In this document: positions 51,682 through 54,876 of the stretch, piece by piece
How the letters are laid out: each line of letters starts with the position of its first letter
Numbering within the stretch: the first letter of the stretch is position 1
NCBI GenBank assembly: GCA_048937405.1
Contig: JBHLNF010000001.1
Coordinates: 944,785 to 1,008,784, forward strand
From: Promethearchaeota archaeon
GTDB taxonomy: Archaea; Asgardarchaeota; Lokiarchaeia; Sigyniarchaeales; SOKP01
Length of the DNA stretch: 64,000 nucleotides
Reading direction: 5' to 3'
The notes under the pieces: model-generated
What the model was told of the DNA's origin: nothing
The model's input: the letters and a program-made list of their open reading frames with translations, nothing else
Database searches by the model: none
Made by a program: the position numbers and the translations under genes

Positions 51682-51927
51682 CTATCTTCTTCCCCGAATT
51701 TTACGAGCTTCTCGTTCTACTTCGCGTAGAATTACGATGTCATCCATCCGAATTGGACCTTTCACATTACGAGTGAGAATTCGATTTTTATCTGGACCTT
51801 CAAGAATACGAACTTTAATTTGAGTAATTTCCCCCGTGAGACCAGTACGTCCAATTACTTGAATTACTTGAGCTGGAATAGATTGATCTTGAACTGTAAC
51901 ACCTTTTGATTTGTCTAATTTTACCAA
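51682..51927 (-). CDS. rps28e: 30S ribosomal protein S28e
   Basis: [26 protein letters not shown]; GGTGAT SD 5 nt before TTG. Confidence 0.96.
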
Positions 51928-51945
51928 ATATCATCACCAAAACAA

Positions 51946-52317
51946 TTATTTTTTTATCTCTTCAATTTTTTTAACAACATCATTTAATGCGTTTTCATTT
52001 CCAGAGCCGACATTTTCAATAGCAATTGCACTTGAAGATACATTGATTCTAATCACATTTCCAAGTTCTTTTTTAGTTGATAAATAACCATAGGGAATTC
52101 CTTTCTCTTCACAGAGAAGTGGAATGTGAAATAAAATTTCTGGAGGAGTTACATCTTCAGCCATAACAACCAATTTTGCTTGAACTCTTTCAATAGATTT
52201 AGTTACTTCATTCATACCTTTTCTAATTTTTGAATCTCTTGTTTCTGCTATTGTTGTTAAAGTATTCTTGAGCTGATTTTTTAACTTTTCAGGTATTTTA
52301 AATTTAACATATGAAAT
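51946..52317 (-). CDS. rpl7ae: 50S ribosomal protein L7Ae; full length needs a non-AUG (ATT) start at 52317, 123 aa
   Basis: Frame stays open upstream of the track's Met: ISYVKFKIPEKL...KIRKGMNEVTKSIER...LVVMAEDVTPPEI; bounded by TGA. Confidence 0.9.
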   Translation of the reverse strand: MSYVKFKIPEKLKNQLKNTLTTIAETRDSKIRKGMNEVTKSIERVQAKLVVMAEDVTPPEILFHIPLLCEEKGIPYGYLSTKKELGNVIRINVSSSAIAIENVGSGNENALNDVVKKIEEIKK

Positions 52318-52332
52318 CTTTATTCATCTCCT

Positions 52333-52469: not shown

Positions 52470-52701
52470 ATGATTATACCTATTCGCTGTTTTTCATGTG
52501 GTAAGCTCATAGCTCATGTCTATAAACCTTACCTTGAGATGATAGAAAAAGGAGAGCCTTCTGAAAAGGCTTTTAAAGAGTTAGGAATCGAGCGATTCTG
52601 TTGTAAACGCATGATCGTAAATTAGTAAGCATTTAAGCTTTCTAAGCGTATGTCATGTGGACCTAATAGATGAACTCCTTAAATTTCCGAGATTGCAATG
52701 A
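52470..52701 (+). CDS. rpo10: RNA polymerase subunit Rpo10 (RpoN), two exons: join(52470..52620,52652..52701), 66 aa
   Basis: MIIPIRCFSCGK...LGIERFCCKRMIV | SHVDLIDELLKFPRLQ*; CxxC and CC zinc ligands intact; absent from the ORF track because it is interrupted. Confidence 0.93.
52621..52651 (+). other. Putative 31-nt bulge-helix-bulge mRNA intron in rpo10
   Basis: Exon stem cgcatga/tcatgtg (7 bp), central helix tcgt/gcgt, two 3-nt bulges, intron stem ttag-t-aagc/gctt-t-ctaa; removal restores frame and the SHV motif. Confidence 0.85.
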
Positions 52702-52724
52702 ACATACACATCTAATAACAAAAT

Positions 52725-54010
52725 TTAAGAGAAATGATCTAAATATTTTCTTTTGAATTTTATAATCTTTCTATTAAAATTTAGATCCCAAATCTTATTT
52801 TCTACTCTCTTCCAATATGAATGTGGCAGTGTTTCAACACTAAATTCATCACATAATCTCTTAAAAAGATCAAAACTAACACCAAAAAACTCGGCTAATT
52901 TAGTTCTAGGTCCAAGATTAATCAACTCATCTATGATATCTTTTTTCCCTATTTTTTCACGAAGAACTTCATAAGTATATCTCCCTCCCTTCATTGGATA
53001 AAATACTCTTTTTCTTTCCATACTGAATTCAAATGATTCCATCATAAAGTTAAATAATATTGGACCGATTCTTAAATACCAATGGTCTTTTATATCACAG
53101 TTTTTTATCCAAACTTTTTCTCTCCCTGCAATTTTCTTATTTTTAACTTCATGTCTTAAATTAAATTCTTCCTTAATTTGCTCAAGAAATTGCTTATTTG
53201 AATTATGAATTATAGGCGCTCCTTCTTCACCATCCCCATCATAAAAGCCGAGTAATACTGACAAAGCCACTTTATACATTAAATTTCTAAAAAAGCCAAC
53301 TCTTAAACATTTTCCTTCTTTAAAATCTAAAAATCCCAATTTTATTAAATCCTTAATCATTGGAATACATCCAATTCTAATTCCATATCTTTCTGGATAT
53401 TCTCCTGATTTTTTTCTTATCCTCCTATCAATTTTATGTTCAATTTTATTTATAACATGTAATTCATTACGAAATCTCTCAATAACCTTGGAATCCCTCT
53501 TTTCTAAAAAAAGGCCAATATGTCCATCCTTAGAAATAAATCCATCAGCAAGTAACAATCCAAAATAATAACCTTTGTTTGTTGTATTAAGTAATTTAAA
53601 GTAATGTTTTTTTAAATTAGGATTATGAAGATGCCATTGCTGTTGTCGATACTCAAGGAGTTGATTTTTTTCAATATAATTATAAATTAATTCTTTACAT
53701 TTTTTAATATCTTTATTGCTCAACTTTTTTGATAAAGATTTGATAAAATCTATTAATTGCTCAACTTTTTTGATAAAGATTTGATAAAATCTATTAATTG
53801 ATCTTTTGAAAATTTAAAATAGGGATTATGCTTTGGACTATTTGAATTCTTTATCCTAAACCGAGTATCTCTTATATATCTAATATGCATACCCAAATAT
53901 TCAGAAAATTTGTCATATGAAAGTATTTTTCTATGTATTTTACTAGTTGATACTAATTCTGATATTTCTTTACGTAGATCTTCTATGAAATCTAATGTAG
54001 AATATTCCAT
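52725..54010 (-). pseudogene. Free-standing double-motif LAGLIDADG homing endonuclease, frameshifted by a 41-bp tandem duplication (ORFs 53753..54010 and 52725..53723)
   Basis: Motifs YYFGLLLADG and VLLGFYDGDG; removing one repeat copy fuses ...SKKLSN-KDIKKC... into one 414-aa ORF. Confidence 0.82.
53715..53800. repeat. Exact 41-bp tandem duplication
   Basis: attgctcaacttttttgataaagatttgataaaatctatta at 53715 and 53756, followed by attg. Confidence 0.95.
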
Positions 54011-54265
54011 AATTGTCTATGAAAATTGAACTGATATAGGATTTTTAGTTAGAAAATTAGTTATTCCAATATTTATGATAAATGAGAGTGATTGATTATT
54101 AATTTCATCTCTAAAGTGAGACAAAGAATCTTAGATATAATATAGATTTAAAATAGGTTTGAAAAATTAGATAAAAATTCTATAGATTTATTCGATGAAT
54201 TACTTAAATTTCCTCGATTACAATAATATAATTATTTATAAATTAATAGAAGTAATAAGCAAGAG

Positions 54266-54448
54266 TTATTGTTTCCCGTAATGGGCAGTCCATCTCGTTT
54301 TTCTTGCTTTTTTATTATAATCTAACATTGATTTACGGCATTTGTTAGTACAAAAGTTCAAGACTGTACCATCTCTCTTTACAAACATGAGACCTCGGCC
54401 TATAGGAATATCATAACCACAAAAACTACATTTTTTTACCTTTACCAT
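54266..54448 (-). CDS. rpl24e: 50S ribosomal protein L24e
   Basis: CSFCG.DI..GRG.MFVKRDG...FCTNKC...RWT. Confidence 0.95.
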   Translation of the reverse strand: MVKVKKCSFCGYDIPIGRGLMFVKRDGTVLNFCTNKCRKSMLDYNKKARKTRWTAHYGKQ

Positions 54449-54477
54449 TAGTAACACATATAAAAATTGTTTAAACT

Positions 54478-54876
54478 CTATTCCTTCTTAAATATTTCAG
54501 CTTCTCCGTATTTTACAACTTTTAAGTTTATTAAAGTCATATCATGAGTAATTTCGTTTCCTCGAACGGTTTTTCTCCTTTTCTGTCCTTTTCTCTGAGG
54601 TTTATATCCACTACTTCTTTTTGAGACTAGTATTTTCTTTTTGACTGGTCCATGAACGCTCTTTCTCATTGGAAAACCACTAGAATCACTTCCACCCATG
54701 ATTTGAAATTCATAATTTGCGAATCCTATCAGACCTCCCTTTATAATATCTCCAATTTTCATTCCTTCAAATCGAAATTTCTTCTCATCAATCTCAATAA
54801 GTTTGGATAATCCTTTTCCAGGACCCTCTTTTCCACCACTAATATTTAGTTTGTATACTATTTTTTCTGAGGACAC
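54478..54876 (-). CDS. rps6e: 30S ribosomal protein S6e
   Basis: GGSDSSGFPM, RKGQKRRKTVRGN. Confidence 0.95.
   Translation of the reverse strand: MSSEKIVYKLNISGGKEGPGKGLSKLIEIDEKKFRFEGMKIGDIIKGGLIGFANYEFQIMGGSDSSGFPMRKSVHGPVKKKILVSKRSSGYKPQRKGQKRRKTVRGNEITHDMTLINLKVVKYGEAEIFKKE

Follow-up and report, generated by a model that had tools for sequence, protein, structure and literature searches.

A probable mobile cassette joining a mini-intron, a replacement rpo10 3' end and a LAGLIDADG nuclease gene in Lokiarchaeia

In the stretch of Lokiarchaeia DNA analysed here (the window, 64,000 nucleotides), sequence comparison identifies a mini-intron, the second exon of the RNA polymerase subunit gene rpo10 and a neighbouring LAGLIDADG nuclease gene as one insertion inside rpo10, bounded by the two halves of that gene. 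They are read as a single insertion because a second rpo10 tail, of host type, lies beyond the nuclease gene. It is highly likely that this insertion is a mobile cassette. The features concerned are collected in Table 1.

Table 1. Features of the rpo10 locus, in positions of the window.
Feature	Position	Strand	Remarks
rpl7ae-rps28e	51682..52329	-	host flank
rpo10 (rpoN) exon 1	52470..52620	+	mostly host-type; terminal ~25 nt common to intron-bearing alleles
BHB motif	52608..52659	+	predicted; 7-bp exon helix, 3-nt bulges, central helix of 3 pairs plus U.U, intron hairpin
GTAA, rpo10 nt 148-151	52617..52620	+	inferred 4-nt overhang of the nuclease cut
mini-intron, 31-nt BHB	52621..52651	+	identical junction in 21 loci, length 29-31 nt
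rpo10 exon 2	52652..52701	+	working but foreign 3' end; purifying selection
free-standing double-motif LAGLIDADG nuclease gene	52725..54010	-	414 aa discounting the duplication; frameshifted in the source strain
41-bp tandem duplication	53715..53796	.	breaks the nuclease frame
displaced original rpo10 3' end, codons 53-66 and stop	54182..54226	+	nhmmer E 1e-7; probable right homology arm
rps6e-rpl24e	54266..54876	-	host flank, without co-conversion

The rpo10 frame that opens at 52470 matches Pfam RNA_pol_N and terminates after MIVN. An earlier note, made from the DNA letters alone, had taken the gene to be split by an intron, and the split is confirmed: deleting 52621-52651 from the sequence yields a 66-aa Rpo10 ending in CCKRMIVSHVDL..RLQ as in intronless relatives. 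Excision likewise restores the protein, with the tail of the intronless alleles, in all 21 loci. The gene is single-copy in the source genome, which is rated 100% complete. The local gene order is rps28e-rpl7ae / rpo10 / nuclease / rpl24e-rps6e, so that the ribosomal-protein setting described in the note was accurate, as was its description of a convergent LAGLIDADG gene lying 23 bp from the rpo10 stop and about 75 bp from the intron: the last base of the rpo10 stop is 52701 and that of the nuclease gene 52725, leaving a gap of 23 bp and a distance of 74 bp between intron and nuclease. The segment 52521-53744 is found without difference on a contig of a second study. Exon 2 is under purifying selection, with pairwise codon differences of 1375 synonymous versus 58 non-synonymous.

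Judging by its predicted structure and by the protein restored on its removal, it is very probable that the insert is spliced out as a BHB intron. The motif is of the relaxed kind, with three of four central pairs formed and the remaining one being U.U in 17 of 19 sequences and U-G in the other two, and its exon helix is 92.5% paired; compensatory change from C-G to U-A occurs. Taken as a whole, the structure is 87.5% paired compared with 32-51% when it is slid along the sequence, five of its pairs show changes on both sides (covariation), and the fold has a z of -2.95. A search of Rfam gave no match. The source genome carries two EndA-domain genes and one RtcB gene as well as several predicted intron-bearing tRNAs.

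The nuclease gene is broken in the source strain, where the tandem duplication splits it into ORFs of 85 and 332 aa, and removal of one 41-bp unit gives the repaired protein of 414 aa that the earlier note had proposed. The 41 duplicated bases are skipped by a contig of a third study, which means that an unbroken nuclease allele exists. Motifs LLLADG and GFYDGDG are conserved with an acidic residue kept in both LAGLIDADG motifs, and LAGLIDADG_3 is matched weakly by 29 of 39 family members; the window's 332-aa ORF taken alone gave no match in Pfam, and searching PDB sequences with the profile of the family returned nothing relevant. In a Foldseek search with the structure model of a 78% identical homologue (pLDDT 89), the top 50 matches were all LAGLIDADG-fold proteins, with a TM by target of 0.3-0.5. 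Motifs, family matches and modelled fold together support the identification of the product of the rpo10-linked gene as a LAGLIDADG protein, for which a role as homing nuclease is probable. The gene has a dN/dS of about 0.2, and decay is seen as frameshifts in the source strain and in G033 and as deletion in four genomes.

In this arrangement the nuclease has on one side a full rpo10 whose 3' end is foreign and on the other a displaced fragment of the native 3' end. The displaced tail of the window, which is without nt 148-156 of the gene, scores above all 200 shuffles. Read data from an intronless relative join 52607 to 54194, and the rpo10 3' end of that relative therefore matches the displaced copy. 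Compared with the nearest intronless kin, the tail is 80-95% similar and exon 2 62-70% in five of seven genomes, the window's own values being 77% and 62%; as the tail is closer than exon 2 to the intronless kin, it appears to be the old end of the host gene and exon 2 the foreign one. Displaced tails were found at 12 distinct intron-bearing loci, including the nuclease-less G047, G058 and G037, and at five intronless loci, three of which have a nuclease or its remnant. In comparison, the 93 loci with neither intron nor nuclease yielded one clear and one weak displaced tail. Some intron-bearing loci (G033, G056, G065) gave no displaced tail.

The orientation of the parts varies between loci. 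At six or seven of them the nuclease lies upstream of rpo10 and co-directional with it, an arrangement which is unexplained by a simple model of insertion; three of these keep a downstream tail, and a displaced 5' piece of rpo10 was sought at upstream-nuclease loci and none was found. At L080 (G092), L097 (G094) and L317 the displaced tail is inverted and lies immediately upstream of rpo10, pointing to an inversion of gene and cassette. The nuclease is reduced to a 38-aa remnant in G092 and G120.

Homologues of the nuclease at 47% identity or more adjoin rpo10 in all of 29 loci (8 genomes, one via a 77-bp contig overlap, and 21 other contigs), although their other neighbours change, while paralogues at about 30% identity each adjoin some other gene. 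The intron is present in 10 of the 48 genomes of the genus and in 0 of 61 informative rpo10 loci from the family's other genera, a count that leaves out ten such loci. Within the genus it occurs in 6 of the 7 genomes that bear the nuclease versus 4 of the 41 others, with kin among them not being independent, and an independent-pairs sign test on the host tree gave p ~0.06. The co-occurrence check proposed in the earlier note thus finds intron and nuclease not to be independently distributed. In all 17 loci that have both, the nuclease lies outside the intron. A search for the junction pattern matched three extra genomes, none of them in rpo10. All genomes compared are MAGs with contamination of up to 9%, and one entry recorded as Thorarchaeota (L272) lies on a contig that matches G052 of the window's genus.

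The intron follows the tree of the nuclease and not that of the host. On the rpoA1 host tree 10 changes of intron state are required, no fewer than for random labels (shuffle mean 9.2), and a host clade of intron carriers is rejected (AU p 2e-7). On the nuclease tree, by contrast, a single change suffices (shuffle minimum 4), and 16 distinct enzymes linked to the intron part at one split from 10 that adjoin intronless rpo10, with the root of this tree being weakly supported (80/78). In the main intron-linked clade 0 of 16 enzymes are found with an intronless allele. As ten distinct relatives adjoin an intronless rpo10, some of them with tails, the family can live without the intron. A 29-nt variant of the intron was observed at the same junction in L196 and L316, whose host ribosomal proteins are only about 74% like those of the window, suggesting transfer beyond the genus. 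The intronless alleles L018 (G046) and L009 (G061) have junction bases resembling the spliced intron allele; in these cases the intron may have been lost precisely, or removed through recombination involving the tail.

The comparison of G066 with G052 shows that intron, exon 2 and nuclease moved horizontally as a block, as far as this can be read from the alignments. Identity between the two genomes is 79.6% for rpoA1, 74% over nt 1-126 of rpo10 and 76-79% for rpl24e. It rises to 100% over nt 127-151 of rpo10 and stands at 98% for exon 2, the intron shows one difference, and the nucleases are sisters. As each genome has this contrast on one contig, it is not accounted for by errors of binning. 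The bases common to intron carriers extend from -12 to about +41, past the BHB helices (+11 to +41), and the 5' and 3' parts of rpo10 have discordant histories. The earlier note had proposed the joint spread of intron and nuclease by co-conversion. Its core stands, in that the two move between hosts together, but they do so apparently as one insertion and not as two elements linked by long co-conversion: rpl24e and rps6e are of host type, and no co-conversion into them was seen.

The ends of the displaced tails hint at where the nuclease would cut. Nt 148 is the first base of the four best-kept tails, and the intron follows nt 151. Since LAGLIDADG enzymes leave 4-nt 3' overhangs (PMC7282813), nt 148-151 is the likely overhang. 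We therefore consider it reasonably probable that the nuclease cuts at nt 148-151, i.e. at the intron site. This leads to a proposed cycle in which the nuclease would cut an intronless rpo10 at codon 50-51 and repair would copy the donor between two homology arms, the left one being exon 1 and the right one the spare rpo10 tail of the donor. The recipient would acquire intron, exon 2 and nuclease, with its own 3' end displaced downstream. As the intron would split the target at the cut, the new allele should resist further cutting, and the mRNA, spliced by EndA and RtcB, would still encode an unchanged Rpo10. The nucleases would later decay, as in the source strain, or be deleted, with intron and tail remaining. 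That the intron acts as a shield against cutting has slightly better than even prospects, and the proposal as a whole, a homing cassette that replaces the rpo10 3' end with the intron as its resistance, is favoured by a narrow balance of probability.

Several other explanations must be considered. The same end-replacing cassette could owe its resistance to recoded exon bases, with the intron a mere passenger in the replacement end, and we regard this as unlikely but worth serious attention. The intronless nuclease branch with displaced tails (L197, G092, L317) implies a resistance there that is independent of the intron, the intron-bearing exons are recoded around the cut (differing from the common empty alleles at nt 139, 141 and 150-153), and these recoded bases could confer resistance by themselves, as in WHO elements, which become resistant through base changes alone (PMC7282813). 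However, C141 and T153, which rank among the most diagnostic exon bases, take part in the pairing of the BHB exon helix and so are explained by splicing, the intron starts exactly at the inferred cut, and the intronless alleles of G046 and G061 resemble the spliced form, yet none occurs with a nuclease of the intron-linked clade. It is improbable that the BHB intron once housed the nuclease, in the manner of archaeal rRNA introns, with the mini-intron being what remained after the nuclease moved out. An intron is expected to start at the cut of the homing enzyme it encodes, and the start at the inferred cut fits such an origin; in addition, the side of the nuclease has switched in several loci, and with the weakly supported outgroup root a single-change history would have the intron ancestral and lost once. 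Nevertheless, in all 21 intron loci the insert measures 29-31 nt, its loop is short and it retains no trace of an ORF. At no locus does the intron contain the nuclease, every sampled paralogue is free-standing, and former residence in the intron leaves the displaced tails unexplained.

More distant from the cassette model are two readings that deny splicing or homing altogether. An unspliced insert, with rpo10 either recoded, still functional as a truncated protein of 51 aa, or in decay, is very doubtful. The four zinc-binding cysteines, as identified in the sequence, all lie within exon 1, and the U.U mismatch recurs in the central helix, which would suit this reading. The insert lengths of 29, 30 and 31 nt at one junction nevertheless span all three frames, so that no single rule of frameshift or read-through can account for them; the purifying selection on exon 2 acts in the frame that is obtained only by precise excision, and the covariation, the loss of pairing on sliding and the single copy of rpo10 speak against the unspliced reading as well. 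Chance neighbourhood, or vertical inheritance with many losses and no homing, is barely credible. It is true that paralogous nucleases occupy five further loci of the genome and that inserts are also known elsewhere in the genus, rpoA1 being one example, but the scatter on the host tree, the AU rejection and the host-type displaced tails oppose this account, and the sharp identity block between distant hosts already contradicts it.

Returning to the cassette model, other loci bear on how far it may extend. The source genome has a second putative nuclease/intron pair at pfkA (outside the window), as recognised from its sequence: removal of a 31-nt insert at G000:C25:149016-149046 restores GGGDCPG, and a paralogous LAGLIDADG gene just upstream of pfkA ends about 140 bp before the insert. 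Several intron-like inserts are seen in rpoA1 of the genus (L180-L188, L190), namely 30 nt at codon ~34 (G049, G048), 30 nt at ~71 (G082, G040, G074) and larger or double inserts near 71-73 (G038, G071, G065, G084); in G049 a paralogous nuclease lies directly upstream of rpoA1, and a displaced end sought there was not found. Among the paralogous nuclease loci of the source genome, pfkA, aIF5B, aldolase and NUDIX were negative for displaced ends and only DUF1848 was positive, where a stop-containing gene piece (G000:C20:4000-4620) lies beyond the nuclease C20:2779-4179 like a displaced gene part. Other nuclease subfamilies (L118-L140) have one constant neighbour each, which from resemblance we take to be EF-1alpha, a class I aldolase-like protein, an SNF2 helicase, an alpha-mannosidase-like protein and the aIF2-gamma region.

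Lokiarchaeia may thus possess a set of locus-specific end-replacing LAGLIDADG cassettes in which a mini-intron born at the cut is the resistance allele, a general engine that makes and spreads protein-spliced mRNA introns, but this generalisation is tentative and has less than even prospects. If true, it would provide a DNA-level engine for introns in conserved genes among the archaea related to eukaryotes, and a testable route by which rare tRNA-type introns spread between archaeal genomes. Published spliced archaeal coding genes are very few, such as cbf5 (PMC2738675) and HVO_1309 (PMC10485636). Here, the gene for an essential subunit of RNA polymerase has a mini-intron linked to a probable homing nuclease, whose cut site is predicted, and the natural empty and filled alleles together with intact homologues make Asgard intron spread testable in vitro. 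There are practical consequences as well, as gene callers overlook or truncate rpo10 in about one fifth of the genus (10/48), and its 3' end misleads phylogenies.

Among known systems, archaeal BHB mRNA introns have been described in cbf5 of Sulfolobales and Desulfurococcales (PMC2738675) and in Haloferax HVO_1309 (PMC10485636). These share with rpo10, where splicing is predicted, a short intron in a coding gene and a relaxed BHB at the junctions, but the cbf5 intron is described as vertical with losses (PMC2738675), whereas that of rpo10 is scattered on the host tree and tied to a nuclease. No mobility mechanism for spliced archaeal coding genes was found in the literature, nor did any paper turn up that deals with BHB introns in Asgard mRNAs or with end-replacing nucleases in archaea, with subscription journals mostly outside the search. 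An intron-encoded archaeal homing endonuclease of the I-DmoI type was rejected, as the ORF lies outside the intron in 17/17 loci. Phage collaborative homing (F-CphI/psbA, T3/T7-like; reviewed in PMC2988022 and PMC10448857) has in common a free-standing nuclease adjoining an ORF-less intron at its inferred target, the two being acquired together. The phage systems, however, combine a self-splicing group I intron with an intergenic nuclease linked by co-conversion, in contrast to a 31-nt BHB intron in one insertion bounded by the target halves.

The closest parallels are elements that replace gene ends. WHO elements at yeast FBA1 (Coughlan et al. 2020, PMC7282813) likewise have a LAGLIDADG gene between a chimeric working gene and a displaced old 3' fragment, the 5' and 3' parts of the target differ in history, the fragments start near the cut and the nucleases decay. 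Repair at FBA1 is modelled via homology arms and cutting was demonstrated (PMC7282813), whereas the rpo10 cut is inferred. The rpo10 cassette differs in its archaeal host, its RNA polymerase target and its convergent nuclease, no tandem clusters were seen, and its replacement end starts with a BHB intron and not with base changes alone. Membership of the WHO family proper was rejected as the target is rpo10 and the family scan gave no intein domain and no consistent zinc finger; the likeness is one of arrangement. In fungal mitochondria, mobile-ORF gene hybrids are known for atp6 of Allomyces and for atp6, atp9, cox2 and nad3 of Glomus (PMC3630166). They too consist of a foreign C-terminal piece and an endonuclease ORF, with a displaced native C-terminus that matches close relatives, but they are found in an organelle, their ORF is co-transcribed or in phase with the host gene, and they have no junction intron spliced by an endonuclease. 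As far as the literature found extends, the combination at rpo10 is new, and by analogy it appears to work like WHO elements and the fungal gene hybrids.
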